Below, piece after piece: positions 10,613-60,585 of a stretch of 64,000 bases of DNA. Made by a program: the position numbers and the translations under genes. Every line of letters begins with the position of its first letter. Position 1 is the first letter of the stretch. The stretch lies in the NCBI RefSeq assembly GCF_036588685.1, contig NC_086375.1:63178001-63242000 (forward strand), read 5' to 3'. The notes beneath the pieces were generated by a model. That model was not told the DNA's origin. It saw only the letters and a program-made list of their open reading frames with translations, and ran no database searches. The DNA comes from Mytilus trossulus. Lineage: Eukaryota.

Positions 10613-10869
10613 TATGACTGAGTATCTGTATCAAAAGAAATCTTTTCTATTCCATAACGATCAAGTCCATCTTTCTAAAAAATAAATGTTGAGACTGTTA
10701 TTCATGAAATCGTAATTTGAATAACATGTTAAACAATGTATGGTCGATAAGATGTTATGTCATGTAATTAATGTAACATATATTTTGCATCAAATGTTTA
10801 TCTAGTTTCAGATATATGTACTTAATAAGAACATCATTCGTAAATATATGTCAACATGCAGACTTCTTA

Positions 10870-35531: not shown

Positions 35532-38500
35532 GTAAACGACCAGCACCAAACCCTAGCGTTTATGACTTTCCCGAGGAATACTGGCCATCACCAGACACAG
35601 AACTAGTACCTTCAGACATGAGTGCAAATCAGGTAGTCATTGTTGAACATACGTTAATGCTAGCTTAAAAAAATCTAATTCTTATAATAATTCCTCACTT
35701 AGCAATACATGCATCTACAAGTAAGAGTACGAAGTATTGGACTGCCAATGCGACTATTCGTGAAGCCAATTTTACATTAGTGGTGACAATCGTGTCAATA
35801 GTTCATCGCATAAGCTTGTTATCAGCTAAATAAGATCAATGGAGGTTGAAAAATATCATTGTACTTTGTACTTAAAAAGTTTCTCAAATACATATTCCAA
35901 ATGTTGTTATTTCATTTCATACTTATATCATACATTTATGACTGATAATAAGACTATCTTCAGCTATTGATGGAGTGTAGCAGAGAAAAAAGAAGGAAAA
36001 AAGAAAACCATTCTAATAGCGCCGTAGAACCTAATTCGTAAGCATCTCCTTTATACCCTCTTGTATATACTTGGCATTGTTTACTGATTGATTGAAGTGA
36101 AACAATTCGAAAAAAGAATTTGTGAACAAATATTTTGTAAATGTTTAAGTTTCGCTACATATGATATATAGTATGTGGTCTGATCATTCACTTTAATACC
36201 ATGTTACAGATCACACAAGCTCGAGAAAAACTTTGCATGTTTGATATGAAGAGATGAAACATGCACAATTATTCAATTTCGGCTGCACATTGAAAAAATG
36301 AGATAGTTACAATATAGTTTTCCATAAATTTACAAAAGGGGAATCTTTATCACACAGGGATCGACATATTATAACCAGACATATCCAAACCATGCACACC
36401 ATTCATTAAGAAGGTTAATATTACAAACGTTGTTTCAAATTAAAAAATAAACAGCTGCGCCATGAGCGCATGATACGCCCGATGTCTTATGTGGAAGTTA
36501 TATGCAATAATCATAAATAGTTTCTGAGAAAGTTTTAAGCAATAACCATATATAGTTTTTGAGACACAGCGGGAAACCCCCCCACCCTGGTTTTTTTTTT
36601 TACAAAAAACTCAATATCACTAAAATAAAATTTTGAATCAAAACCAAAAAGTATACAGATCTTTAGATTAATGAGACAAAGAAGTGTGTAAAGTTTTAAG
36701 CAATAATCATAAATTATTTTTGAGATACAGCGTGACATGTAAAAAAAACTCCCTTGTTTAACAAAATACTCAATAACTCAAAAATAAAATTTTGAATCAT
36801 CAGCACAAAGTATACAGATCTTTAGATCGATATAACAAAGAAGTGTGTAAAGTTTTAAGCAATAATCATAAATTGTTATAGAGATACGGCACAACATGTA
36901 AAAAACCCTCCCCCTTTTTAACAAAATACTCGATCACACAAAAATAAAATTTTGAATCATCATCAAAAAGTATACAGATATTAAGATTTATATAACTAAG
37001 AAGTGATTAATATAACAAAGACATGTGTAAAGTTTGTAGCAATAATCATAAATCTATTTTGAGATATGGCGCGACATGTAAAAAAAACCTCCCCCTTTTT
37101 TACAAAATACTCAATAACTCAAAAATGAAATTTTGAATCATCACCAAAAAGTATACAGATATTAAGATTTATATAACTAAGAAGTGTTTAAAGTTTTAAG
37201 CCATAATCAAGAATAGTTTTTGAGATACAGTGCGACATGTGAAATAAACACCCCCTGTTTTAGCTACTAAGTGCCGTAAATCAAAAAGTTTAAATCTAAT
37301 TTTCACCAAAAAGTATACAGATCATTTGACCATCATAAGAAACAATTATATTAAGTTTCATGAAATTTGGATAAGTTGTTCTCAAGTTACGGTGCGACAT
37401 GTTTACGCCGGACAGACGGACGGACAGACGGACGGACACCGGACATGTGTATACCATAATACGTCCCGTCAAAATTTTGACGGGCGTATAAAAATAGCAT
37501 TACAAATGTGTTGGTTATAGCATATATCAAATAATTGAATTGGGTATGACTTAGTTAAAGATCTCCCTGTTCATATTCCTTACATTAAACACCGGTTATA
37601 ATGTAGTTCTGAAAAGCAGTGGTAATTAAGGATTTATTGAGCTGCGAATTAAACACAAACCATCGACTGGTGTTAATTTCTGCGAGGAAAGAAACATCTA
37701 TTATGTAAATGGCATTTATATTTTTTACAGATCGTCTTTAGACCTTTTAAATGCGGTAAGAAGAACTGAACGTTTGCCAATTGTCTCCCTTAAACAGAAT
37801 CTTTCCGTGGTAAAACAAGCACTAAGTTATCCGGATAGTACAATATTTGAACAGAAAATCACAGAGAAGAGAAAGACCTTTGTCAAGGTATTTAACTGTT
37901 GATGTGCGAGTTCTGTCGATCAGATTTCAAACTACTAGTAATTGATGTTTCGATTAAAATCGTCAATTAAACAGTTTTGGTTTTCGTACACAAATTGGGT
38001 TTTACCCCCATAAATCAAAGTTTAAAAGGAATAGGTAAAAAATAAAATATATATTCTGATAATTTAATCTCAATTGAAACCGCTAAATTCTTAGACTTGT
38101 TCCTTTGTTCGTTTCAAACAGTGCTGCTAACGAAGAGTGAAAAAAAACCAAATAGTATTATAATCCACTTCACGTACCGCTATAAAGATGATATCCTGTT
38201 TATACCATTCAACTTGTTCTTATAAAAGCACCACAGATATATGATCATACAGTAGCTCTGCTTCGTATTTCCACTGTTTAAATATGTTTGTATATTTTTT
38301 AGACTTTGAAAGAAGTTTTTGCTGAACGAAATATCGGAGACTCTCCTAATATAGATTGTCCTGAGCAGCTGACTAGGGAGATAGGTAGACGATTGCGACT
38401 TTGCTTAATGGGTCAAAGAACAGTCAAATCCATACCATGTGGCATCGATATAACAATCGATAACCTCAAGTCTAATGTTACTGAAACAAGAACCTCAAAC

Positions 38501-38536
38501 ATTTATCCAGAATCAAGTTCAGAAGTGTGCGTGTAA
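35532..38536 (+). CDS. Last four coding exons of an uncharacterised gene ('gene X'); 5' part unresolved
   Basis: Exons 35532-35632, 35964-36037, 37731-37887 and 38303-38536 have AG/GT ends and chain in frame without stops (GKRPAPNPSVYDFPEEYWP...LLMECSREKRRKKE...SSLDLLNAVRRTERLP...TLKEVFAERN...EVCV*). AATAAA at about 38632. No family recognised. Confidence 0.65.
36450..37493. mobile_element. HINE-like element, family 3 (mirror copy 53756-54799)
   Basis: atacgccc / gggcgtat subterminal inverted motif, ~160-bp tandem units, GGAC microsatellite, terminal palindrome cccgtcaaaattttgacggg. Confidence 0.75.
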
Positions 38537-38996
38537 TAACTTCAATGTACCATGGTTTGGACAAGCGGACCTTAAAATTTGCATTGCCTAAATCTGGTTG
38601 ATCATCATCATCTTTATGCTGTTTTAACTTCAATAAAACATTTAGTCGTTTTTTTCCTATTCTCTTATTTTTGTTTCATTCTGTATAGTTTATTTTGTAT
38701 TTGTTGAACTGTTATTCTGTTATTCTGCTTGAAGATAAAAAAAGAAAATCCGTATTGAAAAAGTAACAAGGACAAAATGGTACATGGTTGTAATTGCCAA
38801 TGAAAGATATACAAACCTATCAACACACCACACTAACACACACAAACCAACAAAATGAAACACAGTCTTAACAAAAGGCAAATATTTAGCTAATCGCCAC
38901 AGTGTCTTAACTAATTGCAAATAAAGAGGTGATAACAACATTTAGCATTTAATATTGGTTCTCCTGGTATAAACCACCCATCAATGTAGAAATAAA

Positions 38997-39117
38997 ACCA
39001 ATACTTGCACCAAATAAACAAGTATAATCAATACTTGTACAAAATATCCAAGTATAATCAATACTTGTACCAAATATCCAAGTATAACCAATACTTGTAC
39101 CAAACATCCAAGTATAT
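38997..39117. repeat. 30-bp minisatellite, 4 copies (mirror 52132-52252)
   Basis: atacttg recurs at 39001, 39031, 39061 and 39091. Confidence 0.9.
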
Positions 39118-40320
39118 ATATGTACACACTCTGCATATAAACGCCATAAAAGGCTATAATAAATACCAAAGACTTTGTAAAGTGGATAGTCGCACGACAA
39201 CGCCGATGCTCTATATTTAATGATAAATAATCTCAATACATACATATATATCTACACATATAATATATAACTCAAACATCAGTATCGGCACAAAAAACTC
39301 TCCAAATAAAAAGCTTAATAAACTTTAACCAGAATTAAAATTTTACCAAGAAAATTCGACTGCTCAGATTGACGATGTCGTGCTGAATGATAACATAGGC
39401 AATAAAATACCGCGAAAATAATTTTGAAGCGGGAAAACATTACGCCCTCTATGCTACATATGATGAAACACCCAGGAGAAATTAATTTCACTCTAATGCA
39501 CTGCCCATTTAAACGAATGAAATTATAATTCTAAAATTGATTTTGTAATTGGTAAAGAGGTAGGGCCAATTTCAAAAATTGACGACAGAATAGAATTTAC
39601 TTTTAGAAACAAAAAATAAAAATGCTTTCGACCAATATCTCGATTAACATATACATTGTATTATGATATGTGTGATAAATAGATCAATTAAACCATCAAA
39701 AAGGATGAAAGTCCAATGTGCGGAATTTACGGTGATTTTAGGTGGAAAAAAACAGGGAATCACCCAGAAGGACATTTCCAACCAAAAAAAGTAATGTTTT
39801 TGTGACTGTTGTAATTTATTCTTCTTTTTCCCTCAAAAATGAAATTGGTTTGGTGTGTCCTTATCACATAAAAAAACAAAACTTTTTAATAAAAAAAATT
39901 GTAACAACACTAATTGTACTGATATAGCTCCTAAATAACACAGTATAACAAGCGTCGGCGTGGCTCCATCAATAGAGCATAGAACTACTATTCAAAGACT
40001 GTTTTGAAGATAACATTCGAATCTCGCTTAGACTTATTGCATTTTTTGTGTTGTTATATTAAATTTTGATGTTTCTATCATATTTTTTGGATGTTGGCTC
40101 AATTCATACAGTCATTCTGGTTTATTTTGACTTTATAGTATATCATTTTATTAAAGAAAAAATAATGTATCTCTTATTGTGTGCATTCCCATGACTGTCC
40201 ATACTCTTGACTTACTTTCTATTCAATGTTTACATTTATAACATATGTGCACGGAACAACTGCCGTCAAACTGATGTAGGTGCCTGTACATAACTAATAA
40301 CACGAAATTTTATTATATAG

Positions 40321-41165
40321 TGTAACGTGTATATATATATAACCAGGCGTTTATATCGCAAACGTCCGTTCCAGTAAATACTTGGATCCAAGTTGTTCAC
40401 AAACAAAATGGTAATACTAAAAAATACAACTATCTATATTATGCACAATGAACTAAAATATACACACTGACTCTTTGTCGAAATAAAGTTACAACGGACA
40501 ATTATATATATACAAATATAATACAATAAACCAGCCTGTCCTCAAGATGGGACGATGTGTCACTTAGAGATAGTATAGCTGGTACAGCTTGTCCTCCGAA
40601 TGGGACAGTTTGTCAGTACAAGACAGAGCGGTCTGGTACAACTTGTCCTCCGAGTGGGTCAACCTGTCACTACCAGAAAGTGCGGCCTGGAACAACTTGT
40701 CCTCCGAGTGAGACAACCTGTCACTACCAGACAGAGCGGGCTGATACAGCCTGTCCTCCGAGTGGGACAGTCTGCTATGTCAATCCCGTCAACATGTACA
40801 TCCACCTTGTACCCAGTACAAAGTGTCCTCTGAATATCAAGGCTCTTCTAGCACTAATTATATCCGACGTACGCTCAGTTGAAGGATGGCAGCTCATCGA
40901 CAGTCAACCGACAGCCCCGTGTATCGTTTCTCACTCTCTTATATACCCCAGGACGACTATACTATTTACTTGATAGGGGTGTTCTCTAAATGTTCCCGAT
41001 ACCGAACACAAGAGTACCTCCCAAACAACCCCCATACCGATGGACCCAACCACTGACTCTCCCGCCAAACGTCTAAATCTGTTTAACTCTTTCTCAAGCA
41101 TAAACCATGCATTGATACACCAAGATTCTACTTGATTATAACCTTAACGACCAATAAACATTACA
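40321..41165. mobile_element. Solo LTR (Gypsy-like), 845 bp, with an internal 54-bp tandem repeat (mirror 50084-50928)
   Basis: atag|TGTAA ... TTACA|atag: TG...CA ends, 5-bp terminal inverted repeat, 4-bp TSD. TATA-like gggtatataag on the minus strand at about 40940. Confidence 0.75.
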
Positions 41166-41570
41166 ATAGCAATGAAGCCCAAATGCTGCGTGTGTAAAAT
41201 ACACATAACTTAAAATGAGGCCATTGTATACAAGTTTCAAAACAACACAAACAATTTTTCGAAACCTTTTTAAACTTTCTAAACTAATTTAAATAAACTA
41301 TTCCCGATGAGAGACTGTCAAAATCAAAGTCTTACAAATAAAAGAACAAACATAAAAGACAAAAGAAGATTTTCAAGAACATTCATTGTATTGTTCTGTA
41401 AACTATATCAACCTTAGATTAGCACAAGATTCGATCAAATAGTGAAAAACAATATGACATTTTGTGTAGTGTATTTGAAGACAGTCTGTATATATATATA
41501 AAAATAAAAAATAGGTATTTGTTTTGTTTTTATGACTTGTAAGCGACCATATGATAATTAAGCCCGTCCT

Positions 41571-44500
41571 TTAACCAATGATCTGCTGTCCTGTAGCCGC
41601 CCTGAAAAAGATACAGAAACATAGATCAACTTAGGTCTAGTATTCGTTTGTTGATGCGGTTCATAAGTGTTTAGGAAAACCCCCAAATGGCTAGTGTAAA
41701 ACCATTCAAACAGGAAAAGCAACTGTAACTTTATAGCTCAAGTTGTTTGGTGTGAGCTTACGTCCGTGTTGAAGGACGTACTTTGACCTAATTTGGTTTT
41801 CTTTTATAAATACGTAAAAACGATGTTTACGATTACATGATATTTTTAAAGATATTTTTTTAATTAAAGCTCTAAAGTTAAAAAAAATATCAAACAAATG
41901 AATTCCAAAACTTACGGTCTAATATCTATCAACTAACTTTAACCCAGTTTACGATGACATGATATTTTTAAAGATAATTTTTTAATTAAAGCAAAATCAA
42001 ACAAATGAATTCCAAAACTTACTGTTTTTCGCAAAGGAAATTTGCCTGGCGATCACACCGTTCGTCGTTCCAGTTATAATTTTCGTGGTGAAGGAGATCC
42101 ATGCAATCTTCTCCGAGGTTTCCACTAGAGTTTGGCTCTCCTGGCCACCAATGAGTGAATTCCTGTTGGTTGATGGACACTCCAGTTTTTACCCACTGCC
42201 ATTCGCCTTCTACTAAAGAATCTGTACCTCCTATCCACACACCATCGGACATACCTTTATGTATTAATAATAAACATAAGTCACATTTTTCTCTCCAAAT
42301 TTCGATTACAACCAGTGATTTTTACAAGTTTATGGACCTGAACTTTTTTTAAAGCTAGAACAAAATAACACAGATTTTTCTTCGAAATAACAGAAGTGCG
42401 TCAAGTTAATCGATTTTGTTGATAGGGTTATCATATAAATAAATCTAAGGATATGAGGGAATTGAGTTGATTCTTTCCCTTCAAATAATAAAGGATCACA
42501 TTCATCACCATGACAAACTTACAGAACACGAAGTGAATAAGATTTTTTCTTCCCATTTCCACCTTGAATATTGAGCATTGTTTGTCACCAAAAAGGGATT
42601 TCGATAGTACTATACAAATCCTTGCGTCGAATGAGTGAAAATAAGAATGTCAACCCTTAGCTGGAGAAATGCAAGAACGGGAAAATGTTTGAAATATCAT
42701 ATAAAATTTCAGTTTTATCGTGATTAAAGCTATAATGATTGATGATTGGTGGTTGTTATTACATGTACATGTATATACTTTTCCTTAAAAAAATGATGTC
42801 GAACATTCACATAAGCAACACGACAGGTGCCACATGTGGAGCAGAATCTGCTTACCCTTCCGGAGCACCTGAGATCACCCCTAGTTTTTGGTGGGGTTCG
42901 TGTTGTTTATTCTTTATGCCCGCGTCACACTGTCCCGATTTTTACGAATTTTCGCGCTAAAATACATTTAAAGTGCCATGCGCGATATGCACTGGTCAGT
43001 CTAATACGACAGTTAAGAAAGACGTTCACAAAACATGGAGCTTACATCATATGATTCTATGCGAACATGAAAGGCGACAGCGTTGTTTCTATTAATTCAA
43101 ATGGAACAAGAAGAGCAGCTATTACAGGCTCAGGATTTACTTTAACAAGTAAAATATTATTTTTTGTCAATTTTTCATATCAAGTAACATAATGAAAATC
43201 ATAAACGCGCCTCGTACTCGTACTGCAGGTACAAGTATATAGGGAAACCAACTTTTTCATTATTCTGATTTTTTATGTATCGTCTGAGTTGTTGTCACAC
43301 GAATGTTTACTCCTTAACCATTTTGTTTTCTATATGTTATATCTTGCCGCATTTGTTGCTTCCCCCACATCCTTCCTTTTGTCTATAGTATTATGATATT
43401 CTCCTGGAAAGGGCTCTTTTGAATAAAAGGGATCAACGAACCCATGACCTTACCTTAAGGAAAGATCAGTAAACATGGGCATGATTATGGGTGATTATTC
43501 AGACTAGTGCACACATTTTTAGCTCGTATGTTCCAATTTTGTATCTCCCTTTCTCTGTGCTATGTGTATCCGATTGCGAACTTTCCACTTCTGTATCTAT
43601 TTTTCTTTTGGTCTTGTACTTTCCTGCTAGACTCATACCCCTCCCTTTTCCTCTTCCTCTCCCTCTCCCTGATTTTGGTGGCATTATATGCAGAGACTCA
43701 GAGTCAAGTTTTACCCTTCAAGCCCAATGTCTTCTATCTTATGATTAAACCAGAAATGAAATGTACAATATAATATATATTCAATATTGATCAAATCAAA
43801 TGCATCGTTAGCTGTACACGACGTCTTTTAGACATCGTATGGCCATCGCGCCATCATTGTAATCCATCCTGTAGCCTTCGTAATCCATCATGTAGCCTTC
43901 GTGATCCATCGTGAAGGCTTCGGCTGAGATATGAAGCTTAAATACCCGTCTTCGGTTAACCTTCGTATGTCCATCTTTTGCTATCGTATATAAATTCGGC
44001 ACCATCGTATAGACTTCGTTATTCATCGTACTTGCTTCGGTCACATTTTGGTATTTTAACGAGATCGGGACCAACTTCGTACGAACTTACAATTTTCGCA
44101 TTCGGGTGTCCATCGTATATAAAAATCGGGACAGTGTGACGCGGGCATTAGTTTTCTATGTTGTGGCATGTGTTTTTCTGTTTTTCTTTTTCATTTTTAG
44201 CCATGGCGTTGTCAGTTTGTTTTAGATTTATGATTTTGACTTTCCCTTTGGTATTTTTCGTCCCTCTTCTAGATGTTCAAAATGTACCAATGAATACCCT
44301 ATAAGAAGAAGATAGATATTCGGAGGGCTTTACCTGACTTGAATTCCCTTCTAAGAAAACCTTCTACAAAGTTCTGTTCTCTTGCTGTTTCAATTATTGC
44401 CAAATCTGAACCAAACACTTGGCAATACATCTGTGATAAAACAACAGATTTATATACACACATATATATCCATCTTACATTTCCGATTTGTCCTTATGTT

Positions 44501-45755
44501 ATCACGTAAATGAGATTTTTGTTTTTCAGTTACTGTCGTGTCCGATATTTTCGGCCAAAAATGAACTTTATGTTGTTCGTTCTTATGTTGCACTGTTATA
44601 CCACTGTCCCACGTTAGGGGGAGGGGGGGACCCCGCTAACTTGTTTAACCCCGCCACATTATTTATGTGTGTGCCTGTCACAAGTCAGGAGCCTGTAATT
44701 CAGTGGTTGTCGTTCGTTTGTTGATGTGTTACATATTTGTTTTTCGTTTACATTTTTTATATAAATAAGGCCGTTAGTTTTCTCGTTTGAATTGTTTTAC
44801 ATTGTCCTATCGGGGCCTTTTATTACTGACTATGCGGTATATGTTTTGCTCATTGCTGAAGGCCGTTGGTGACCTACAGTTGTTTATGTCTGTGTCATTT
44901 TGCTCTGTTGTGGACTGTTTTCTTATTGGCATCAGACCACATCTTCTTTTTTATATTTAAAATAATTCTAAGGAAAAGGTTAATGGATTTTAGAACTATA
45001 AATCATTCATATATATGAAGAATAAGTCTATAGGTACTAAGAAAGGATAACATTTCAAAATTTGTCTCGCGTTCATGGCTGAAACAAATATAGAGAACAT
45101 TAAAACGACCTCTTTTACAAGTGGTGACTAACTTGACAGTTATTTCCAAACAATTTAAACAAAGCGAAAATAAAATATATACAGCAGTTCATATAAATAT
45201 TTAGTATTGGTTAAATAATAAAATAACAAATATATATTATGTATCTTAAAACTTACAAATGCCTCGGCCCATGATGCTTTAGTAGAAGCATACAATTTAT
45301 AGCAGGAATCGTCATGCCTCATATAACCATTAGGACAATCGCAAACAGCTACAACATAACATATACGGCTTATATATTAGATATTTTGTCATACATTTTG
45401 TAATTAAATTAGATTTATTCATTTGTGTTTTCTCGACAAATTTATTTCATCATATTATGAGTTATGTATGTACTGTATTTGTCCATTGAAGAACGCAGCT
45501 TTGGGGTAATTCAATCAATTATAAATCATAGCCGGCATAAAAATGCTTTAACTATACGTATTTACCAAAATATATTTGGTATATGTCATTCAAAGAGTTA
45601 GACGTTAACGATATGACGAAATGTTAACGTTAAGTTTATGACCAAAAAAAACTTTAAAAAAACTCCCAAGCATCCAATATTTTAAAACAAGATAAAACAA
45701 TCTTACCATTCACAACAAACAGTCCAAATATTGCAATCGTGGCAATCAATTTCAT
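41571..45755 (-). CDS. Secreted single-domain C-type lectin (perlucin-like), EPN/WND type, 166 aa ('lectin 1')
   Basis: Exons 45707-45755 (signal peptide MKLIATIAIFGLFVVN), 45257-45348 (CPNGY..DSCY..SWAEA), 44334-44430 (YCQVFGSDLAIIET..EQNF), 42023-42254 (VWIGGTD..GEPN..EDC..WNDERC..FLCE) and 41571-41601 (AATGQQIIG*). All are GT-AG and in phase. Confidence 0.92.
42917..44147. mobile_element. Non-autonomous PIF/Harbinger-type element in intron 3 of lectin 1
   Basis: Perfect 28-bp TIR tgcccgcgtcacactgtcccgattttta. TTA TSD (42914-42916, 44148-44150). Removing it restores the host repeat tattcttta-gttttctatg. Confidence 0.88.
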
Positions 45756-46011
45756 GTTCAATTTAATAATGTGGAAATACAGTAGTCTATACAGTAGATA
45801 ACCCATGACCTTGGACACAGAAACACCAATCTTAAAAGTAAACTGTTCCTGTACTTTGACCAGGAATCGTAACAGACAAAAATAACTGCGTTCTCAAATA
45901 CATTTCACGGCAACTACTACTCGACGTTTAGTAGATATTTCGAGAGATCTTCCCATATTTAGCATTACTATCACGGAACGACAAAAATTGTGATAGTCTG
46001 GAACCTACAAA
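45756..46011. promoter_or_regulatory. Putative bidirectional promoter and 5' UTRs between the divergent lectin start codons (second copy 58093-58348)
   Basis: ATG of lectin 1 (45755, minus) and ATG of lectin 2 exon 1 (46012, plus) are separated by 256 bp. Upstream non-coding exons cannot be excluded. Confidence 0.6.
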
Positions 46012-49000
46012 ATGTTGTGGAAATATTTTTCAGTTTTTCTCACTTTAGCTATTCTCGGATCACCACTAGGTAAGTTAAATTTCTGTACACAAAATATTCG
46101 AAATTACTTATCTGAACTATCGTTTTATGTATGAAACTGAATTTCAATTTATTGACATGTAGTAATCGAATTAAAACTTTGATTTCGTTATAAGACATAC
46201 GAGCTCATATGTACATGACTGTACTTATAACGAAATCAGAGACTCATGTCGATTTATAGACAAATTCACGGTTCAAGGTCTAACTTTTTTTATTGAAAAA
46301 GAAACGTCTTTTAGAATTAGAGTAGATGGTCGTTAACTTGGCCACAATCAATAATAGGGTATCTAGTTTAAAAAAAATGTGTCCGATAACCCCCGCCCTT
46401 GAGTTCGTAATTTTAAGGACATTTTGCAGTTTTTTAAGTTATTATCTTGAATACTACTATAGAAAGAGAGTAAACAGCAATAATGTTCAGCATGATTTCA
46501 TTACGGGTATCTACGGATTATTTTCTACAAATACTTCAACAGGACTAAAATTGTCAATTGACCAAGTAAGGAGTTATTGCCCTTTATAGTCAATGTTTTA
46601 ACAATTTTTCGTAAATTTTTGGAATCATTTACAAAAATCGTCTACTCTGAACTCTACATAGACAGATTCAGACAGTCTTAGCCACAATCATGATTAATTT
46701 AGGGTATATTGTTAAAAAAAAAGAATATGTCGGATGCGGACCACGCCTGCCAACCAACATGGCCGCTACAGCTACCTAGAGGCTCTAAAGAGCCTGTGTC
46801 GCTCACCTTGTTCTATGTGAATATTAAACAAAGGAAGCAGATGGATTCATGACAAAATTGTGTTTTGGTGATGGTGATGTGTTTGTACATTTTACTTTAC
46901 TGAACATTCTTGCTGCTTACAATTATCTCTATCTATGATGAACTTGGCCCAGTAGCTTCTGTGGAAAACGTTACCGGTAGTAAAAATTTACAAATTTTAT
47001 GAAAATTGTTTAAAATTGACTATAAAGGACAATAACTCCTTAGGGGGTCAATTGACCATTTTGGTCATGTTGACTTATTTGTAAATCTTACTTTGCTAAA
47101 CATTATTGCTGTTTACAGTTTATCTCTATCTATAATAATATTCAAGATAATAACCAAAAACAGCAAAATTTCCTTAAAATTACCAATGCAGGGGCAGGAA
47201 CCCAACAACAGGTTCTTTGATTTATTTGAAAATTTCAGGGCAGATAGATCTTGACCTGGTTAACAATTTCACTACCTGTCAGATTTGCTCTAAATGCTTT
47301 GGTTTTTGAGTTATAAGCCAAAAGCTGCATTTCACCCCTATGTTCTTTTTTTAGCCATGGCAGCCATCTTGGTTGATTTGGCGGGTCACGCCACACATTT
47401 TTTAAACTAAATACCCCAATGATAATTGTGGCCAAGTTTGGATTAATTTGGCCCAGCAGTTTCAGAGCAGAAGATTTTTGTAAAAGATATATAAAATTTA
47501 CAAAAAATGGTTAAAAATTGACTTTAAAGGGCAATAACTCCTAAAGGGATCAACTGAAAATTTTGGTCATGTTGACTTATTTGTAAATCTTACTTTGCTG
47601 AACATTATTGCTGTTTACAGTTTATCTCTATCTATAATAACATTCAAGATAATAACCAAAAACAGCAAAATTTCCCTAAAATTACCAATTCAGGGACAGT
47701 AACCCAACAAAGGTTTGTCCGATTCATCTGAAAATTCCAGGGCAGATAGATCTTGACCTGATAATCAATTTTACCCCGTCAGATTTGCTCTAAATGCTTT
47801 GGTTTTTGAGTTATAAGCCAAAAACTGCATTTTACCCCTATGTTCTATTTTTAGCCATGGCGGCCATCTTGGTTGGTTTGGCGGGTCATATCACACATTT
47901 TTTTTAATTTAGATACCCCAATGATGATTGTGGCCAAGTTTGGTTAAATTTGGCCCAGTAGTTTCAGAGGAGAAGATTTTCGTAAAAGCTAACGACGGAC
48001 GACGACGGACGACGGACGCCAAGTGATGAGAAAAGCTCACTTGGCCCTTTTGGCCAGATGAGCTAAACATAGAACAGAGGGGTAAAATGCAAGCTGCGAC
48101 TATCATCTTGAAACTGCTATGAGTAAAAAAAAATCTAACAGGTGCAATAATGTTCAGAATGTTGAGATATACATACTGTCCGTCTCTAAGTCAAAACAGT
48201 CAGATGACTTCTTACAGGAGTTAATGACCTTACTGATCGTCAGATGACCATGACCCATGACCTTGGACACAGAAACACCAATCTTAAAAGTAAACTGTTC
48301 CTGTACTTTGACCAGGAATCGTAACGCGGGCATAAAGAATAAACAACACGAACCCCACCAAAAACTAGGGGTGATCTCAGGTGCTCCGGAAGGGTAAGCA
48401 GATTCTGCTCCACATGTGGCACCTGTCGTGTTGCTTATGTGAATGTTCGACATCATTTTTTTAAGGAAAAGTATATACATGTACATGTAATAACAACCAC
48501 CAATCATCAATCATTATAGCTTTAATCACGATAAAACTGAAATTTTATATGATATTTCAAACATTTTCCCGTTCTTGCATTTCTCCAGCTAAGGGTTGAC
48601 ATTCTTATTTTCACTCATTCGACGCAAGGATTTGTATAGTACTATCGAAATCCCTTTTTGGTGACAAACAATGCTCAATATTCAAGGTGGAAATGGGAAG
48701 AAAAAATCTTATTCACTTCGTGTTCTGTAAGTTTGTCATGGTGATGAATGTGATCCTTTATTATTTGAAGGGAAAGAATCAACTCAATTCCCTCATATCC
48801 TTAGATTTATTTATATGATAACCCTATCAACAAAATCGATTAACTTGACGCACTTCTGTTATTTCGAAGAAAAATCTGTGTTATTTTGTTCTAGCTTTAA
48901 AAAAAGTTCAGGTCCATAAACTTGTAAAAATCACTGGTTGTAATCGAAATTTGGAGAGAAAAATGTGACTTATGTTTATTATTAATACATAAAGGTATGT

Positions 49001-49678
49001 CCGATGGTGTGTGGATAGGAGGTACAGATTCTTTAGTAGAAGGCGAATGGCAGTGGGTAAAAACTGGAGTGTCCATCAACCAACAGGAATTCACTCATTG
49101 GTGGCCAGGAGAGCCAAACTCTAGTGGAAACCTCGGAGAAGATTGCATGGATCTCCTTCACCACGAAAATTATAACTGGAACGACGAACGGTGTGATCGC
49201 CAGGCAAATTTCCTTTGCGAAAAACAGTAAGTTTTGGAATTCATTTGTTTGATTTTGCTTTAATTAAAAAATTATCTTTAAAAATATCATGTCATCGTAA
49301 ACTGGGTTAAAGTTAGTTGATAGATATTAGACCGTAAGTTTTGGAATTCATTTGTTTGATATTTTTTTTAACTTTAGAGCTTTAATTAAAAAAATATCTT
49401 TAAAAATATCATGTAATCGTAAACATCGTTTTTACGTATTTATAAAAGAAAACCAAATTAGGTCAAAGTACGTCCTTCAACACGGACGTAAGCTCACACC
49501 AAACAACTTGAGCTATAAAGTTACAGTTGCTTTTCCTGTTTGAATGGTTTTACACTAGCCATTTGGGGGTTTTCCTAAACACTTATGAACCGCATCAACA
49601 AACGAATACTAGACCTAAGTTGATCTATGTTTCTGTATCTTTTTCAGGGCGGCTACAGGACAGCAGATCATTGGTTAA
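46012..49678 (+). CDS. Predicted chimera A: lectin-2 signal-peptide exon plus lectin-1 exons 4-5, 106 aa
   Basis: 46012-46069 (MLWKYFSVFLTLAILGSPL, phase-1 donor g|gtaagt) joins 48995-49226 (phase-1 acceptor) and 49648-49678 in frame. Expression not shown. Confidence 0.5.
46776..48066. mobile_element. HINE family-1 copy in intron 1 of lectin 2 (duplicate 59113-60403)
   Basis: Same internal repeat, GAC microsatellite and terminal stem-loop as 7244-8633. Confidence 0.75.
48253..48325 (+). repeat. 73-bp templated insertion at the rearrangement junction
   Basis: Exact copy of 45801-45873 (acccatgaccttggacacag...ggaatcgtaac). Confidence 0.93.
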
Positions 49679-52600
49679 AGGACGGGCTTAATTATCATAT
49701 GGTCGCTTACAAGTCATAAAAACAAAACAAATACCTATTTTTTATTTTTATATATATATACAGACTGTCTTCAAATACACTACACAAAATGTCATATTGT
49801 TTTTCACTATTTGATCGAATCTTGTGCTAATCTAAGGTTGATATAGTTTACAGAACAATACAATGAATGTTCTTGAAAATCTTCTTTTGTCTTTTATGTT
49901 TGTTCTTTTATTTGTAAGACTTTGATTTTGACAGTCTCTCATCGGGAATAGTTTATTTAAATTAGTTTAGAAAGTTTAAAAAGGTTTCGAAAAATTGTTT
50001 GTGTTGTTTTGAAACTTGTATACAATGGCCTCATTTTAAGTTATGTGTATTTTACACACGCAGCATTTGGGCTTCATTGCTATTGTAATGTTTATTGGTC
50101 GTTAAGGTTATAATCAAGTAGAATCTTGGTGTATCAATGCATGGTTTATGCTTGAGAAAGAGTTAAACAGATTTAGACGTTTGGCGGGAGAGTCAGTGGT
50201 TGGGTCCATCGGTATGGGGGTTGTTTGGGAGGTACTCTTGTGTTCGGTATCGGGAACATTTAGAGAACACCCCTATCAAGTAAATAGTATAGTCGTCCTG
50301 GGGTATATAAGAGAGTGAGAAACGATACACGGGGCTGTCGGTTGACTGTCGATGAGCTGCCATCCTTCAACTGAGCGTACGTCGGATATAATTAGTGCTA
50401 GAAGAGCCTTGATATTCAGAGGACACTTTGTACTGGGTACAAGGTGGATGTACATGTTGACGGGATTGACATAGCAGACTGTCCCACTCGGAGGACAGGC
50501 TGTATCAGCCCGCTCTGTCTGGTAGTGACAGGTTGTCTCACTCGGAGGACAAGTTGTTCCAGGCCGCACTTTCTGGTAGTGACAGGTTGACCCACTCGGA
50601 GGACAAGTTGTACCAGACCGCTCTGTCTTGTACTGACAAACTGTCCCATTCGGAGGACAAGCTGTACCAGCTATACTATCTCTAAGTGACACATCGTCCC
50701 ATCTTGAGGACAGGCTGGTTTATTGTATTATATTTGTATATATATAATTGTCCGTTGTAACTTTATTTCGACAAAGAGTCAGTGTGTATATTTTAGTTCA
50801 TTGTGCATAATATAGATAGTTGTATTTTTTAGTATTACCATTTTGTTTGTGAACAACTTGGATCCAAGTATTTACTGGAACGGACGTTTGCGATATAAAC
50901 GCCTGGTTATATATATATACACGTTACACTATATAATAAAATTTCGTGTTATTAGTTATGTACAGGCACCTACATCAGTTTGACGGCAGTTGTTCCGTGC
51001 ACATATGTTATAAATGTAAACATTGAATAGAAAGTAAGTCAAGAGTATGGACAGTCATGGGAATGCACACAATAAGAGATACATTATTTTTTCTTTAATA
51101 AAATGATATACTATAAAGTCAAAATAAACCAGAATGACTGTATGAATTGAGCCAACATCCAAAAAATATGATAGAAACATCAAAATTTAATATAACAACA
51201 CAAAAAATGCAATAAGTCTAAGCGAGATTCGAATGTTATCTTCAAAACAGTCTTTGAATAGTAGTTCTATGCTCTATTGATGGAGCCACGCCGACGCTTG
51301 TTATACTGTGTTATTTAGGAGCTATATCAGTACAATTAGTGTTGTTACAATTTTTTTTATTAAAAAGTTTTGTTTTTTTATGTGATAAGGACACACCAAA
51401 CCAATTTCATTTTTGAGGGAAAAAGAAGAATAAATTACAACAGTCACAAAAACATTACTTTTTTTGGTTGGAAATGTCCTTCTGGGTGATTCCCTGTTTT
51501 TTTCCACCTAAAATCACCGTAAATTCCGCACATTGGACTTTCATCCTTTTTGATGGTTTAATTGATCTATTTATCACACATATCATAATACAATGTATAT
51601 GTTAATCGAGATATTGGTCGAAAGCATTTTTATTTTTTGTTTCTAAAAGTAAATTCTATTCTGTCGTCAATTTTTGAAATTGGCCCTACCTCTTTACCAA
51701 TTACAAAATCAATTTTAGAATTATAATTTCATTCGTTTAAATGGGCAGTGCATTAGAGTGAAATTAATTTCTCCTGGGTGTTTCATCATATGTAGCATAG
51801 AGGGCGTAATGTTTTCCCGCTTCAAAATTATTTTCGCGGTATTTTATTGCCTATGTTATCATTCAGCACGACATCGTCAATCTGAGCAGTCGAATTTTCT
51901 TGGTAAAATTTTAATTCTGGTTAAAGTTTATTAAGCTTTTTATTTGGAGAGTTTTTTGTGCCGATACTGATGTTTGAGTTATATATTATATGTGTAGATA
52001 TATATGTATGTATTGAGATTATTTATCATTAAATATAGAGCATCGGCGTTGTCGTGCGACTATCCACTTTACAAAGTCTTTGGTATTTATTATAGCCTTT
52101 TATGGCGTTTATATGCAGAGTGTGTACATATATATACTTGGATGTTTGGTACAAGTATTGGTTATACTTGGATATTTGGTACAAGTATTGATTATACTTG
52201 GATATTTTGTACAAGTATTGATTATACTTGTTTATTTGGTGCAAGTATTGGTTTTATTTCTACATTGATGGGTGGTTTATACCAGGAGAACCAATATTAA
52301 ATGCTAAATGTTGTTATCACCTCTTTATTTGCAATTAGTTAAGACACTGTGGCGATTAGCTAAATATTTGCCTTTTGTTAAGACTGTGTTTCATTTTGTT
52401 GGTTTGTGTGTGTTAGTGTGGTGTGTTGATAGGTTTGTATATCTTTCATTGGCAATTACAACCATGTACCATTTTGTCCTTGTTACTTTTTCAATACGGA
52501 TTTTCTTTTTTTATCTTCAAGCAGAATAACAGAATAACAGTTCAACAAATACAAAATAAACTATACAGAATGAAACAAAAATAAGAGAATAGGAAAAAAA

Positions 52601-55600
52601 CGACTAAATGTTTTATTGAAGTTAAAACAGCATAAAGATGATGATGATCAACCAGATTTAGGCAATGCAAATTTTAAGGTCCGCTTGTCCAAACCATGGT
52701 ACATTGAAGTTATTACACGCACACTTCTGAACTTGATTCTGGATAAATGTTTGAGGTTCTTGTTTCAGTAACATTAGACTTGAGGTTATCGATTGTTATA
52801 TCGATGCCACATGGTATGGATTTGACTGTTCTTTGACCCATTAAGCAAAGTCGCAATCGTCTACCTATCTCCCTAGTCAGCTGCTCAGGACAATCTATAT
52901 TAGGAGAGTCTCCGATATTTCGTTCAGCAAAAACTTCTTTCAAAGTCTAAAAAATATACAAACATATTTAAACAGTGGAAATACGAAGCAGAGCTACTGT
53001 ATGATCATATATCTGTGGTGCTTTTATAAGAACAAGTTGAATGGTATAAACAGGATATCATCTTTATAGCGGTACGTGAAGTGGATTATAATACTATTTG
53101 GTTTTTTTTCACTCTTCGTTAGCAGCACTGTTTGAAACGAACAAAGGAACAAGTCTAAGAATTTAGCGGTTTCAATTGAGATTAAATTATCAGAATATAT
53201 ATTTTATTTTTTACCTATTCCTTTTAAACTTTGATTTATGGGGGTAAAACCCAATTTGTGTACGAAAACCAAAACTGTTTAATTGACGATTTTAATCGAA
53301 ACATCAATTACTAGTAGTTTGAAATCTGATCGACAGAACTCGCACATCAACAGTTAAATACCTTGACAAAGGTCTTTCTCTTCTCTGTGATTTTCTGTTC
53401 AAATATTGTACTATCCGGATAACTTAGTGCTTGTTTTACCACGGAAAGATTCTGTTTAAGGGAGACAATTGGCAAACGTTCAGTTCTTCTTACCGCATTT
53501 AAAAGGTCTAAAGACGATCTGTAAAAAATATAAATGCCATTTACATAATAGATGTTTCTTTCCTCGCAGAAATTAACACCAGTCGATGGTTTGTGTTTAA
53601 TTCGCAGCTCAATAAATCCTTAATTACCACTGCTTTTCAGAACTACATTATAACCGGTGTTTAATGTAAGGAATATGAACAGGGAGATCTTTAACTAAGT
53701 CATACCCAATTCAATTATTTGATATATGCTATAACCAACACATTTGTAATGCTATTTTTATACGCCCGTCAAAATTTTGACGGGACGTATTATGGTATAC
53801 ACATGTCCGGTGTCCGTCCGTCTGTCCGTCCGTCTGTCCGGCGTAAACATGTCGCACCGTAACTTGAGAACAACTTATCCAAATTTCATGAAACTTAATA
53901 TAATTGTTTCTTATGATGGTCAAATGATCTGTATACTTTTTGGTGAAAATTAGATTTAAACTTTTTGATTTACGGCACTTAGTAGCTAAAACAGGGGGTG
54001 TTTATTTCACATGTCGCACTGTATCTCAAAAACTATTCTTGATTATGGCTTAAAACTTTAAACACTTCTTAGTTATATAAATCTTAATATCTGTATACTT
54101 TTTGGTGATGATTCAAAATTTCATTTTTGAGTTATTGAGTATTTTGTAAAAAAGGGGGAGGTTTTTTTTACATGTCGCGCCATATCTCAAAATAGATTTA
54201 TGATTATTGCTACAAACTTTACACATGTCTTTGTTATATTAATCACTTCTTAGTTATATAAATCTTAATATCTGTATACTTTTTGATGATGATTCAAAAT
54301 TTTATTTTTGTGTGATCGAGTATTTTGTTAAAAAGGGGGAGGGTTTTTTACATGTTGTGCCGTATCTCTATAACAATTTATGATTATTGCTTAAAACTTT
54401 ACACACTTCTTTGTTATATCGATCTAAAGATCTGTATACTTTGTGCTGATGATTCAAAATTTTATTTTTGAGTTATTGAGTATTTTGTTAAACAAGGGAG
54501 TTTTTTTTACATGTCACGCTGTATCTCAAAAATAATTTATGATTATTGCTTAAAACTTTACACACTTCTTTGTCTCATTAATCTAAAGATCTGTATACTT
54601 TTTGGTTTTGATTCAAAATTTTATTTTAGTGATATTGAGTTTTTTGTAAAAAAAAAAACCAGGGTGGGGGGGTTTCCCGCTGTGTCTCAAAAACTATATA
54701 TGGTTATTGCTTAAAACTTTCTCAGAAACTATTTATGATTATTGCATATAACTTCCACATAAGACATCGGGCGTATCATGCGCTCATGGCGCAGCTGTTT
54801 ATTTTTTAATTTGAAACAACGTTTGTAATATTAACCTTCTTAATGAATGGTGTGCATGGTTTGGATATGTCTGGTTATAATATGTCGATCCCTGTGTGAT
54901 AAAGATTCCCCTTTTGTAAATTTATGGAAAACTATATTGTAACTATCTCATTTTTTCAATGTGCAGCCGAAATTGAATAATTGTGCATGTTTCATCTCTT
55001 CATATCAAACATGCAAAGTTTTTCTCGAGCTTGTGTGATCTGTAACATGGTATTAAAGTGAATGATCAGACCACATACTATATATCATATGTAGCGAAAC
55101 TTAAACATTTACAAAATATTTGTTCACAAATTCTTTTTTCGAATTGTTTCACTTCAATCAATCAGTAAACAATGCCAAGTATATACAAGAGGGTATAAAG
55201 GAGATGCTTACGAATTAGGTTCTACGGCGCTATTAGAATGGTTTTCTTTTTTCCTTCTTTTTTCTCTGCTACACTCCATCAATAGCTGAAGATAGTCTTA
55301 TTATCAGTCATAAATGTATGATATAAGTATGAAATGAAATAACAACATTTGGAATATGTATTTGAGAAACTTTTTAAGTACAAAGTACAATGATATTTTT
55401 CAACCTCCATTGATCTTATTTAGCTGATAACAAGCTTATGCGATGAACTATTGACACGATTGTCACCACTAATGTAAAATTGGCTTCACGAATAGTCGCA
55501 TTGGCAGTCCAATACTTCGTACTCTTACTTGTAGATGCATGTATTGCTAAGTGAGGAATTATTATAAGAATTAGATTTTTTTAAGCTAGCATTAACGTAT

Positions 55601-56536
55601 GTTCAACAATGACTACCTGATTTGCACTCATGTCTGAAGGTACTAGTTCTGTGTCTGGTGATGGCCAGTATTCCTCGGGAAAGTCATAAACGCTAGGGTT
55701 TGGTGCTGGTCGTTTACCTTTATCAAACAGTAATTATAAAACATCCGATTTTAAAATCAAATAGTACATAAATAAAAACAAAAAAATCAAACATTTCGCA
55801 TAAAAAAAGATAAAAAAATATCCTTAAAAATGAAACGCCATTGATAAAAAACCACCGAAATGTTGTATGATTGACAACGATACAACAACCGCACAGAGAC
55901 CACAGGCTGTGGATATAAACAACTATAGAAATTTTTAAACCTCAATATCCAAGTATACAAATGATTAGTATGTATTAATTTTGTTTATATATAGACCGTT
56001 GGTTTTCCAGTTTGAATGGTTTTACACTAATAATTTTGGGGCCCTTTATAGCTTGTTGTTCGGTGTGAGCCAAGGCTCCGTGTTGAAGGCCGTACTTTAA
56101 CCTATAATGGTTTACTTTTTAAATTGTTATTTGGATGGAGAGTTGTCTCATTGGCACTCATACTACATCTTCCTATATCTATTGAGATAATTTCCAAGTT
56201 CTTATGAATAGTGTGTTTGAGAGCAGTTTGGCTTGTGAAACAGCTGTATTTACAAAGTTTTCGTTTGCAACCATTTGACAGTTGAACGGCAAACGATTTA
56301 ATGGCTTCTAAGGTCAAGACATTGGTCACGTGATAAAAGGTCAGAGTTTACGATTTTTGGTAAACGTGCACGCCTCGTGGTTTTTGAACTCGTATTGTCT
56401 TATTTGTACTCGTACATTGATAAAAACCAAAGAGTTCAATTCTAGATTGAATAAGCTTCCTTATTTTATATAATTATCATTAAAAAGTGTTGTAAAAATG
56501 TTATAAATTCACGAGTGAAGTGAAACTTTTTTTCTG
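48324..56536 (-). repeat. Right arm (inverted A) of the 8,213-bp inverted repeat
   Basis: Reverse complement of 34713-42925. Confidence 0.97.
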
Positions 56537-58092
56537 GCCATGGCGTTGTCAGTTTGTTTTAGATTTATGATTTTGACTTTCCCTTTGGTATTTTTCGTCC
56601 CTCTTCTAGATGTTCAAAATGTACCAATGAATACCCTATAAGAAGAAGATAGATATTCGGAGGGCTTTACCTGACTTGAATTCCCTTCTAAGAAAACCTT
56701 CTACAAAGTTCTGTTCTCTTGCTGTTTCAATTATTGCCAAATCTGAACCAAACACTTGGCAATACATCTGTGATAAAACAACAGATTTATATACACACAT
56801 ATATATCCATCTTACATTTCCGATTTGTCCTTATGTTATCACGTAAATGAGATTTTTGTTTTTCAGTTACTGTCGTGTCCGATATTTTCGGCCAAAAATG
56901 AACTTTATGTTGTTCGTTCTTATGTTGCACTGTTATACCACTGTCCCACGTTAGGGGGAGGGGGGGACCCCGCTAACTTGTTTAACCCCGCCACATTATT
57001 TATGTGTGTGCCTGTCACAAGTCAGGAGCCTGTAATTCAGTGGTTGTCGTTCGTTTGTTGATGTGTTACATATTTGTTTTTCGTTTACATTTTTTATATA
57101 AATAAGGCCGTTAGTTTTCTCGTTTGAATTGTTTTACATTGTCCTATCGGGGCCTTTTATTACTGACTATGCGGTATATGTTTTGCTCATTGCTGAAGGC
57201 CGTTGGTGACCTACAGTTGTTTATGTCTGTGTCATTTTGCTCTGTTGTGGACTGTTTTCTTATTGGCATCAGACCACATCTTCTTTTTTATATTTAAAAT
57301 AATTCTAAGGAAAAGGTTAATGGATTTTAGAACTATAAATCATTCATATATATGAAGAATAAGTCTATAGGTACTAAGAAAGGATAACATTTCAAAATTT
57401 GTCTCGCGTTCATGGCTGAAACAAATATAGAGAACATTAAAACGACCTCTTTTACAAGTGGTGACTAACTTGACAGTTATTTCCAAACAATTTAAACAAA
57501 GCGAAAATAAAATATATACAGCAGTTCATATAAATATTTAGTATTGGTTAAATAATAAAATAACAAATATATATTATGTATCTTAAAACTTACAAATGCC
57601 TCGGCCCATGATGCTTTAGTAGAAGCATACAATTTATAGCAGGAATCGTCATGCCTCATATAACCATTAGGACAATCGCAAACAGCTACAACATAACATA
57701 TACGGCTTATATATTAGATATTTTGTCATACATTTTGTAATTAAATTAGATTTATTCATTTGTGTTTTCTCGACAAATTTATTTCATCATATTATGAGTT
57801 ATGTATGTACTGTATTTGTCCATTGAAGAACGCAGCTTTGGGGTAATTCAATCAATTATAAATCATAGCCGGCATAAAAATGCTTTAACTATACGTATTT
57901 ACCAAAATATATTTGGTATATGTCATTCAAAGAGTTAGACGTTAACGATATGACGAAATGTTAACGTTAAGTTTATGACCAAAAAAAACTTTAAAAAAAC
58001 TCCCAAGCATCCAATATTTTAAAACAAGATAAAACAATCTTACCATTCACAACAAACAGTCCAAATATTGCAATCGTGGCAATCAATTTCAT
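52713..58092 (-). CDS. Predicted chimera B: lectin-1 exons 1-3 plus the last four exons of gene X, 267 aa
   Basis: Exons 58044-58092, 57594-57685 and 56671-56767 (phase-1 donor), then 55617-55717 (phase-1 acceptor), 55212-55285, 53362-53518 and 52713-52946: 804 nt, open frame. Depends on the gene X model. Expression not shown. Confidence 0.45.
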
Positions 58093-60585
58093 GTTCAATT
58101 TAATAATGTGGAAATACAGTAGTCTATACAGTAGATAACCCATGACCTTGGACACAGAAACACCAATCTTAAAAGTAAACTGTTCCTGTACTTTGACCAG
58201 GAATCGTAACAGACAAAAATAACTGCGTTCTCAAATACATTTCACGGCAACTACTACTCGACGTTTAGTAGATATTTCGAGAGATCTTCCCATATTTAGC
58301 ATTACTATCACGGAACGACAAAAATTGTGATAGTCTGGAACCTACAAAATGTTGTGGAAATATTTTTCAGTTTTTCTCACTTTAGCTATTCTCGGATCAC
58401 CACTAGGTAAGTTAAATTTCTGTACACAAAATATTCGAAATTACTTATCTGAACTATCGTTTTATGTATGAAACTGAATTTCAATTTATTGACATGTAGT
58501 AATCGAATTAAAACTTTGATTTCGTTATAAGACATACGAGCTCATATGTACATGACTGTACTTATAACGAAATCAGAGACTCATGTCGATTTATAGACAA
58601 ATTCACGGTTCAAGGTCTAACTTTTTTTATTGAAAAAGAAACGTCTTTTAGAATTAGAGTAGATGGTCGTTAACTTGGCCACAATCAATAATAGGGTATC
58701 TAGTTTAAAAAAAATGTGTCCGATAACCCCCGCCCTTGAGTTCGTAATTTTAAGGACATTTTGCAGTTTTTTAAGTTATTATCTTGAATACTACTATAGA
58801 AAGAGAGTAAACAGCAATAATGTTCAGCATGATTTCATTACGGGTATCTACGGATTATTTTCTACAAATACTTCAACAGGACTAAAATTGTCAATTGACC
58901 AAGTAAGGAGTTATTGCCCTTTATAGTCAATGTTTTAACAATTTTTCGTAAATTTTTGGAATCATTTACAAAAATCGTCTACTCTGAACTCTACATAGAC
59001 AGATTCAGACAGTCTTAGCCACAATCATGATTAATTTAGGGTATATTGTTAAAAAAAAAGAATATGTCGGATGCGGACCACGCCTGCCAACCAACATGGC
59101 CGCTACAGCTACCTAGAGGCTCTAAAGAGCCTGTGTCGCTCACCTTGTTCTATGTGAATATTAAACAAAGGAAGCAGATGGATTCATGACAAAATTGTGT
59201 TTTGGTGATGGTGATGTGTTTGTACATTTTACTTTACTGAACATTCTTGCTGCTTACAATTATCTCTATCTATGATGAACTTGGCCCAGTAGCTTCTGTG
59301 GAAAACGTTACCGGTAGTAAAAATTTACAAATTTTATGAAAATTGTTTAAAATTGACTATAAAGGACAATAACTCCTTAGGGGGTCAATTGACCATTTTG
59401 GTCATGTTGACTTATTTGTAAATCTTACTTTGCTAAACATTATTGCTGTTTACAGTTTATCTCTATCTATAATAATATTCAAGATAATAACCAAAAACAG
59501 CAAAATTTCCTTAAAATTACCAATGCAGGGGCAGGAACCCAACAACAGGTTCTTTGATTTATTTGAAAATTTCAGGGCAGATAGATCTTGACCTGGTTAA
59601 CAATTTCACTACCTGTCAGATTTGCTCTAAATGCTTTGGTTTTTGAGTTATAAGCCAAAAGCTGCATTTCACCCCTATGTTCTTTTTTTAGCCATGGCAG
59701 CCATCTTGGTTGATTTGGCGGGTCACGCCACACATTTTTTAAACTAAATACCCCAATGATAATTGTGGCCAAGTTTGGATTAATTTGGCCCAGCAGTTTC
59801 AGAGCAGAAGATTTTTGTAAAAGATATATAAAATTTACAAAAAATGGTTAAAAATTGACTTTAAAGGGCAATAACTCCTAAAGGGATCAACTGAAAATTT
59901 TGGTCATGTTGACTTATTTGTAAATCTTACTTTGCTGAACATTATTGCTGTTTACAGTTTATCTCTATCTATAATAACATTCAAGATAATAACCAAAAAC
60001 AGCAAAATTTCCCTAAAATTACCAATTCAGGGACAGTAACCCAACAAAGGTTTGTCCGATTCATCTGAAAATTCCAGGGCAGATAGATCTTGACCTGATA
60101 ATCAATTTTACCCCGTCAGATTTGCTCTAAATGCTTTGGTTTTTGAGTTATAAGCCAAAAACTGCATTTTACCCCTATGTTCTATTTTTAGCCATGGCGG
60201 CCATCTTGGTTGGTTTGGCGGGTCATATCACACATTTTTTTTAATTTAGATACCCCAATGATGATTGTGGCCAAGTTTGGTTAAATTTGGCCCAGTAGTT
60301 TCAGAGGAGAAGATTTTCGTAAAAGCTAACGACGGACGACGACGGACGACGGACGCCAAGTGATGAGAAAAGCTCACTTGGCCCTTTTGGCCAGATGAGC
60401 TAAACATAGAACAGAGGGGTAAAATGCAAGCTGCGACTATCATCTTGAAACTGCTATGAGTAAAAAAAAATCTAACAGGTGCAATAATGTTCAGAATGTT
60501 GAGATATACATACTGTCCGTCTCTAAGTCAAAACAGTCAGATGACTTCTTACAGGAGTTAATGACCTTACTGATCGTCAGATGAC
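56537..60585 (+). repeat. Second copy (C) of the 4,049-bp direct repeat
   Basis: Matches 44200-48248 and continues into unique sequence containing the rest of lectin 2. Confidence 0.97.

Follow-up and report, generated by a model that had tools for sequence, protein, structure and literature searches.

Within a 64,000-nucleotide stretch of the Mytilus trossulus genome (contig NC_086375.1 of assembly GCF_036588685.1, positions 63,178,001 to 63,242,000, forward strand; hereafter called the window, whose own numbering is used throughout), the leader exon of one C-type lectin gene precedes, in frame, the last two coding exons of its neighbour. Both parental genes are intact, and the resulting 106-residue frame can be viewed as a by-product of a complex duplication. 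We consider it probable that this duplication arose very recently by template switching, that the half lectin domain so encoded remains unfolded and is degraded, and that the allele is likely a passenger.

The parental lectins and the chimeric reading frame

The window harbours two five-exon C-type lectin genes arranged head to head, with start codons 205-256 nt apart. Lectin 1 (41571-45806, minus strand), which has an EPN motif, is intact and codes for 183 residues from its upstream ATG, identical to RefSeq XP_063425845.1. Lectin 2 (58349-63474, plus strand), which has a QPD motif, is also intact and codes for 165 residues, identical to XP_063429304.1. Both RefSeq proteins are named perlucin-like and belong to M. 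trossulus. Orthologues of the two lectins are found under consecutive accessions in Mytilus edulis, Mytilus galloprovincialis and Mytilus californianus (two protein clusters), and this accession numbering suggests that the pair is old and adjacent. At 62345-62865, approximately ten 51-nt units in tandem each look like the final part of lectin-2 exon 4 together with the donor that follows it, and these units could provide alternative donors.

The chimeric frame is made up of exons 46012-46069, 48995-49226 and 49648-49678 on the plus strand, which have GT-AG borders and translate into 106 residues followed by a stop codon. The first exon, identical to lectin-2 exon 1 (58349-58406), is 58 nt long; it encodes a hydrophobic leader in 19 codons plus one nucleotide, ends in phase 1 and has the donor GTAAGT. 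The second corresponds to lectin-1 exon 4 (232 nt, bordered by AG and GTAAGT, starting in phase 1) and carries the WIGG, EPN and WND motifs as well as Cys70, Cys86 and Cys94, the only three Cys residues of the chimera. The last coding exon, which corresponds to lectin-1 exon 5, holds the stop codon. Both 3' exons match lectin-1 exons 4 and 5 (42254-42023 and 41601-41571) letter for letter in inverted orientation, and at the protein level residues 21-106 of the chimera equal lectin-1 residues 98-183. The predicted product would thus equal a lectin-1 isoform skipping exons 2 and 3, with another leader. Its middle exon is recognised by the Pfam profile Lectin_C (PF00059), but over profile positions 41-107 of 107 only.

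An earlier note had described this 106-residue frame as using native splice sites and the lectin-1 3' end, and the coordinates and translation agree with it at the DNA level: the arrangement and the frame are confirmed, and the splicing is predicted. Both lectins have intron phases 1-0-1-2, so that the frame is kept whenever exon 1 is joined to exon 4. As the shared phases give the frame automatically, its being open is no sign of selection, and it is not above chance expectation once breakpoints fall in intron 1 and intron 3.

Structure and age of the duplication

The chimera lies in a complex duplication with the order A-X-B-insert-A(inverted)-B, followed by C, the rest of lectin 2. Segment A (34713-42928) harbours lectin-1 exons 4 and 5 on the minus strand and, on the plus strand, exons that may form the 3' part of a third gene. 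Its inverted copy A' (48321-56536) differs from it by one mismatch, at the junction (42926). The first copy of segment B (44200-48248) comprises lectin-1 exons 1-3, the promoter interval shared by the two lectins and lectin-2 exon 1; the second (56537-60585) matches it without difference across 4049 nt and drives intact lectin 2 as well as a reciprocal lectin-1 5' fragment. Segment X is present once.

No internal differences were found between the copies, over 8213 nt for A and A' and 4049 nt for the two copies of B, which, if the assembly is correct, places their divergence below approximately 2.4e-4 per site. For mutation rates assumed to lie between 1e-9 and 1e-8, the duplication would be at most some 12,000-120,000 generations old, provided that the assembly did not homogenise the copies. 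Because the copies are still identical, the chimera appears from its sequence to be a young allele, not an evolved gene. A run of 841 N is found at 17075-17915, 17 kb to the left of the rearrangement.

This organisation matches the duplication-normal-inversion/duplication (DUP-NML-INV/DUP) type of rearrangement, as segments A and B are each present twice and X once, and as one junction joins distal ends and the other proximal ends, giving an inverted copy. In a report on the human PLP1 locus (PMC6902434), two duplicated segments likewise surround a single-copy one, with distal-distal and proximal-proximal junctions, an inverted proximal segment between two direct distal copies, a templated insert and microhomology. 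The mussel case differs from those described there in that it spans kilobases rather than hundreds of kilobases, occurs in a mollusc, has junctions that are not Alu/Alu or LINE/LINE hybrids, and has a single-copy segment consisting almost exactly of one terminal inverted repeat (TIR) element. According to the same source, three structures fit the same DUP-NML-INV/DUP junctions; the chimera depends on junction 1 only and is therefore present in each of them.

Junctions and the TIR element

Junction 1 (48249-48325, plus strand) consists of 5 extra nucleotides, a slip of the adjacent motif, followed by a 72-nt templated insert (48254-48325) exactly matching 45802-45873, with a 2-nt microhomology into A'. 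The template corresponds to the lectin-1 5' end and the shared promoter interval, and at the first switch it resembles the end of B in six of seven letters. At junction 2 (56536/56537), the proximal end of A is bluntly joined to the proximal end of B, with no exact microhomology and with T-rich sequence on both sides. The insert also holds the upstream start codon and the 5' region of lectin 1, and it may carry antisense promoter activity into the chimeric intron. Separately, the insert introduces an AG at 48316 that has a good pyrimidine tract.

The TIR element (42917-44147, 1231 nt) lies in lectin-1 intron 3, has perfect 28-nt terminal inverted repeats and is flanked by TTA on both sides, a duplication that we take to be typical of PIF/Harbinger elements. 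It looks non-coding, makes up nearly all of segment X and is inserted in a short repeat element, an empty form of which is found at 24459-24690. The end of segment A lies within the left TIR, 7-12 nt in, and B begins 53 nt past the right end of the element.

Duplication by template switching during DNA replication is likely. A fork would have departed from B at its end, within a 40-nt tandem repeat, and initiated two times in the lectin-1 5' region, yielding the 72-nt copy; it would then have switched strands shortly inside the TIR element, synthesised 8.2 kb in the reverse direction and resumed where B starts. In PMC6902434, templated inserts, near-matches, microhomology and blunt joins are described for replicative rearrangements, for which repeated template switching is invoked. 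In another source (PMC8277862), fork stalling at TIR elements is proposed. The TIR element may similarly have helped to stall the fork here, itself neither moving nor being duplicated. The Pack-TIR/FoSTeST duplications of that source share with the mussel case a switch point inside a TIR element, a 2-nt microhomology and a nearby template; unlike them, the mussel rearrangement captures nothing between TIRs and involves no transposition, the element being single and both its flanks duplicated. There are only two full TIRs in the window, and A' retains 7-12 nt of one. Alternative transposition was rejected, since TIRs are not kept at the junctions.

Evidence from sequencing runs

Sequencing-run contigs were mapped to 48170-62385 for 4 of the 24 matching runs (X1, X2, X8 and X15), none of which is on record as RNA; two are guessed to be DNA and two are of unrecorded kind. 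X1 is the sole run with more than half of the words (0.83). It may be the source sample and hence tests the assembly rather than allele frequency. Seven of the eight listed X1 records lie in A' or B, with depths of 46.5-53.6 and zero or one other letter, although the tool cautions against reading contig depth as copy number. At 49122, a second allele reaches 20.7 out of a total of 74.3. In single-copy segment C, single-allele depths are 25.9, 30.8 and 34.1, and both alleles are seen at site 61936 (34.1 of 58.2, with 24.1 for the other). These depths fit three copies versus two and favour a real duplication over an assembly error.

The X8 and X15 contigs cross exon-intron borders and thus behave as DNA. 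The chimeric splice would appear as a joint running from 58406 back to 48995; the rows listed, to which 943 joints masked by repeat families do not belong, include none, and with no mapped run on record as RNA this does not count as a negative. Record 26 of X8 includes 544 letters at odds with the window, apparently beyond 56536, as expected of an unrearranged allele. The sole listed X1 contig over lectin-2 exon 4 (62171-62311) differs from the window at eight sites, only one of which is shared by X8, X15 and X2, and it may represent a diverged second allele or a paralogue.

Predicted transcription and splicing

The chimera would probably be under lectin-2 control, as judged from the duplicated promoter interval of 205-256 nt common to both lectins. 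Everything upstream of exon 1 is native, as are the donor and the 670 nt leading up to the acceptor. Lectin-2 intron 1 supplies the 5' part of this chimeric intron (46070-48248), which contains two repeat units of approximately 500 nt and ends in the 40-nt tandem repeat at the distal end of segment B. In all, the intron is 2.9 kb long, compared with 2.76 kb for native lectin-2 intron 1. Promoter copy 1 would fire, exon 1 would be spliced to the first native acceptor downstream, and the location of the stop codon in the last exon would spare the chimeric mRNA from decay. No canonical AATAAA or ATTAAA was found in 49680-50400; the 3' end there is the native lectin-1 one, and nothing is concluded from this. 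RefSeq includes an 86-residue protein without a leader, XP_063425846.1, which starts at the exon-4 Met and is identical to residues 21-106 of the chimera. Its gene model probably sits on A'.

The leader and the half domain

The probable cleavage site of lectin 2, VLS|D (residues 20-22), is encoded by exon 2 and is thus lost, and in the fusion GMS|D occupies the equivalent register and presumably also satisfies the (-3,-1) rule of signal cleavage. The leader would be cut after Ser22, leaving 84 residues, all from lectin 1. Because the contribution of lectin 2 ends with the leader, the QPD parent has no share in specificity, and the contrast between QPD and EPN that the earlier note had put forward carries no mechanistic weight.

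Exon 4 begins at lectin-1 residue 97, and the part lost includes the modelled strand E48-53 and helices H60-69, which holds Cys67, and H80-93. In a published account of CTLDs (C-type lectin-like domains), the lower lobe consists of strands 1 and 5 and both helices, and the upper lobe of strands 2-4 and the long loop (PMC7618208). By comparison with the full-length model, the chimera would retain the upper lobe, together with a strand 5 deprived of its partners. The WIGL-type core motif (WIGG), EPN and WND are all present. Of the lower lobe, strand 1 and helices 1 and 2, which pack on strand 5, are absent, and the two intrachain disulfides cannot both form with three Cys residues, the Cys67 partner being gone; we take the pairing of Cys94 to be the disulfide that links helix 1 to strand 5. 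With two defining features failing, the chimera is outside functional C-type lectin domains with Ca2+ site II. Among perlucin-like single-domain lectins of Mytilus and oysters (XP_063425845.1, XP_063429304.1, XP_052103509.1 and XP_022330927.1), lectin 1 shares WIGG, EPN and WND with it; the chimera differs from these lectins in lacking strand 1, helices 1 and 2, the N-terminal Cys pair and Cys67.

The half domain is predicted not to fold. Its structural model, built from a 25-row alignment, has a predicted local distance difference test score (pLDDT) of 44.8 and a predicted template modelling score (pTM) of 0.29, with no residue above 70, compared with 66.1 and 0.59 for full-length lectin 1 modelled with an alignment of the same 24 relatives. 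Core blocks with pLDDT values of 60-73 in the full model fall to 41-46 in the half model. The full model is, however, a mediocre control: its own sugar-binding loop (111-141) stays below a pLDDT of 50, a loop for which the corresponding residues 11-30 of the half score better (55-58), and its best solved match, codakine (2vuv), is at a root-mean-square deviation of 7.4 A. Of the 150 listed cluster representatives, mostly multi-domain lectins, three entered the alignments. A homodimer prediction for the 86-residue half scored 0.00 without use of the alignment and is no evidence either way. A search for natural half-domain relatives yielded six matches, all of them 77-residue single-exon gene calls or partial models; none combined a leader with exon 4.

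Unfolded chains with free thiols are generally retained in the endoplasmic reticulum and degraded, and the 84-residue half with its free thiol would likewise be held and destroyed there. The missing helices and unpaired Cys reported in the earlier note are borne out by the exon-4 boundary and the absence of Cys67, and misfolding, which it had listed among several possible outcomes, emerges from the structure predictions as the likely one. The dominant-negative role that it also envisaged finds no support in any analysis, and both parents are intact.

The reciprocal product

The same rearrangement leaves lectin-1 exons 1-3 in the second copy of B (56611-58143, minus strand), where read-through into the intron gives the 107-residue RefSeq protein XP_063427427.1 ('snaclec-like'). 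Both the 86- and the 107-residue halves are named from M. trossulus only (two clusters). Candidate exons of the third gene at 35532-35632, 37798-37887 and 38303-38536 on the plus strand, mirrored at 55717-52713 on the minus strand, constitute one open frame of approximately 140 residues, which has no match in Pfam or the ESM Atlas. In the inverted copy they are located downstream of lectin-1 exons 1-3, onto which they are predicted to splice in frame, giving 220 residues. The leader, Cys67 and both helices are kept in either reciprocal form (107 or 220 residues). The idea that the reciprocal transcript silences lectin 1 in antisense was set aside, as this transcript would probably reach the copied 3' exons of the third gene well before the lectin-1 exons.

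Alternative explanations

Several observations weigh against our interpretation and are considered here with the alternatives. It is quite improbable that the duplications are artefacts of assembly or library construction, for instance from chimeric long molecules, and that neither junction exists in the animal. Such an artefact would be in keeping with the lack of differences over 12.2 kb of copies and with the halves leaving no sign in the records of other species. Among the records listed for the four mapped runs, which leave aside 175 difference rows, 943 joints and 210,840 pieces, none bridges either junction, and the mean depths of three C bins (85.9, 62 and 98), put down to repeats, are not below those of repeat-poor bins in A' and B (70-83). 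Yet the X1 contigs identical to the window in A' and B are approximately twice as deep as the second allele, whereas the two alleles in C are about equal (24.1 and 34.1), and a set of junctions with four switches, a templated insert and a slip would be unlike the overlap joins of an assembler. If the rearrangement is real, the chimeric mRNA might still hardly be made, with transcripts ending or splicing elsewhere in the repeat-rich intron, a reading that we regard as unlikely. It draws on the fact that XP_063425846.1 does not use exon 1 in frame and that no 106-residue form is found among the 11 members of its RefSeq protein cluster; furthermore, the exon-4 acceptor is weak, with 91 of the 144 AG sites in the chimeric intron scoring as high or higher by a crude score, including stronger ones in the new part of the intron and one in the templated insert (48316). 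The native donor, upstream sequence and acceptor region and the near-native length of the intron speak for normal splicing, however, and the silence of RefSeq would be meaningless if the RNA used for annotation came from non-carriers.

It also seems very doubtful that the half domain is both made and active, be it by folding as an upper lobe alone, by pairing through Cys94 with itself or with the N-terminal half, or by trapping intact lectins. All the upper-lobe residues are present (WIGG, EPN, WND and Cys70-Cys86), and a leader-bearing N-terminal half with Cys67 arises from the same event, placed under a duplicate of the shared promoter interval. Against activity stand the low confidence of the half model, the identity of the copies to their parents, which leaves no time for or trace of selection, and the presence of both intact parents and of a second allele; in addition, segregating duplications in Drosophila occur mostly in single strains, which the authors of PMC4069613 take to mean that deleterious effects are frequent. 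In its most elaborate form, this idea amounts to a split lectin that arose naturally in a single step. The two copies of the promoter interval would drive a leader-bearing C-terminal half with a free Cys94 and a leader-bearing N-terminal half with a free Cys67, and if produced in one cell the two would reassemble as a two-chain CTLD with an interchain disulfide, the N-terminal chain possibly bearing a new 140-residue tail from the neighbouring gene. Such reassembly is thinkable because the N-terminal half keeps the leader, the helices and Cys67, and we nevertheless judge it exceedingly improbable.

Other features of the window

Three further coding regions were observed. A single open frame of 685 codons at 20780-22837 (plus strand), apparently intronless, encodes BTB and BACK domains. 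An 850-codon open frame at 26716-29268 (minus strand) has no significant Pfam match; we take its make-up to recall that of a transposase-like gene. Exons of a protein-only RNase P (PRORP) gene are found at 6268-10630 (minus strand), of which 6271-6729 matches PF16953.

Comparison with known chimeric genes and implications

The chimera is an in-frame fusion of two genes with both parents intact, as expected of a chimeric gene. Segregating chimeric genes of Drosophila, as presented in PMC4069613 and PMC5460883, similarly place the 3' end of a neighbour under the 5' end and promoter of another gene, with intact parents and a young age. The former source counts 78 and 38 chimeric genes in two species, with most duplications in single strains, and the latter indicates that chimeric structures often alter expression. 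In contrast to those genes, the mussel case is known from DNA alone, and its inverted segment fuses divergently transcribed paralogues, which is impossible by simple tandem duplication. Literature searches, by titles and abstract openings, revealed nothing on this locus, on chimeric mussel lectins or on truncated lectin domains, and the abstracts of PMC4019660 and PMC12616954, like PMC10140915, where the terms occur in the reference list only, have no bearing on the fate of half domains.

The locus would take on greater importance only if the two halves were expressed and complemented each other. If our favoured reading is true, that of a passenger allele generated by template switching, it would represent a small, sequence-resolved mollusc example of a rearrangement known from human disease genetics, seen before any mutation accumulated and with a DNA transposon at whose ends two of the breakpoints fall. 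It would also illustrate one way in which the large lectin repertoires of bivalves gain fragments. The 86-residue 'perlucin-like' and 107-residue 'snaclec-like' RefSeq proteins would then be the halves of one broken copy and should not be counted as lectin genes.

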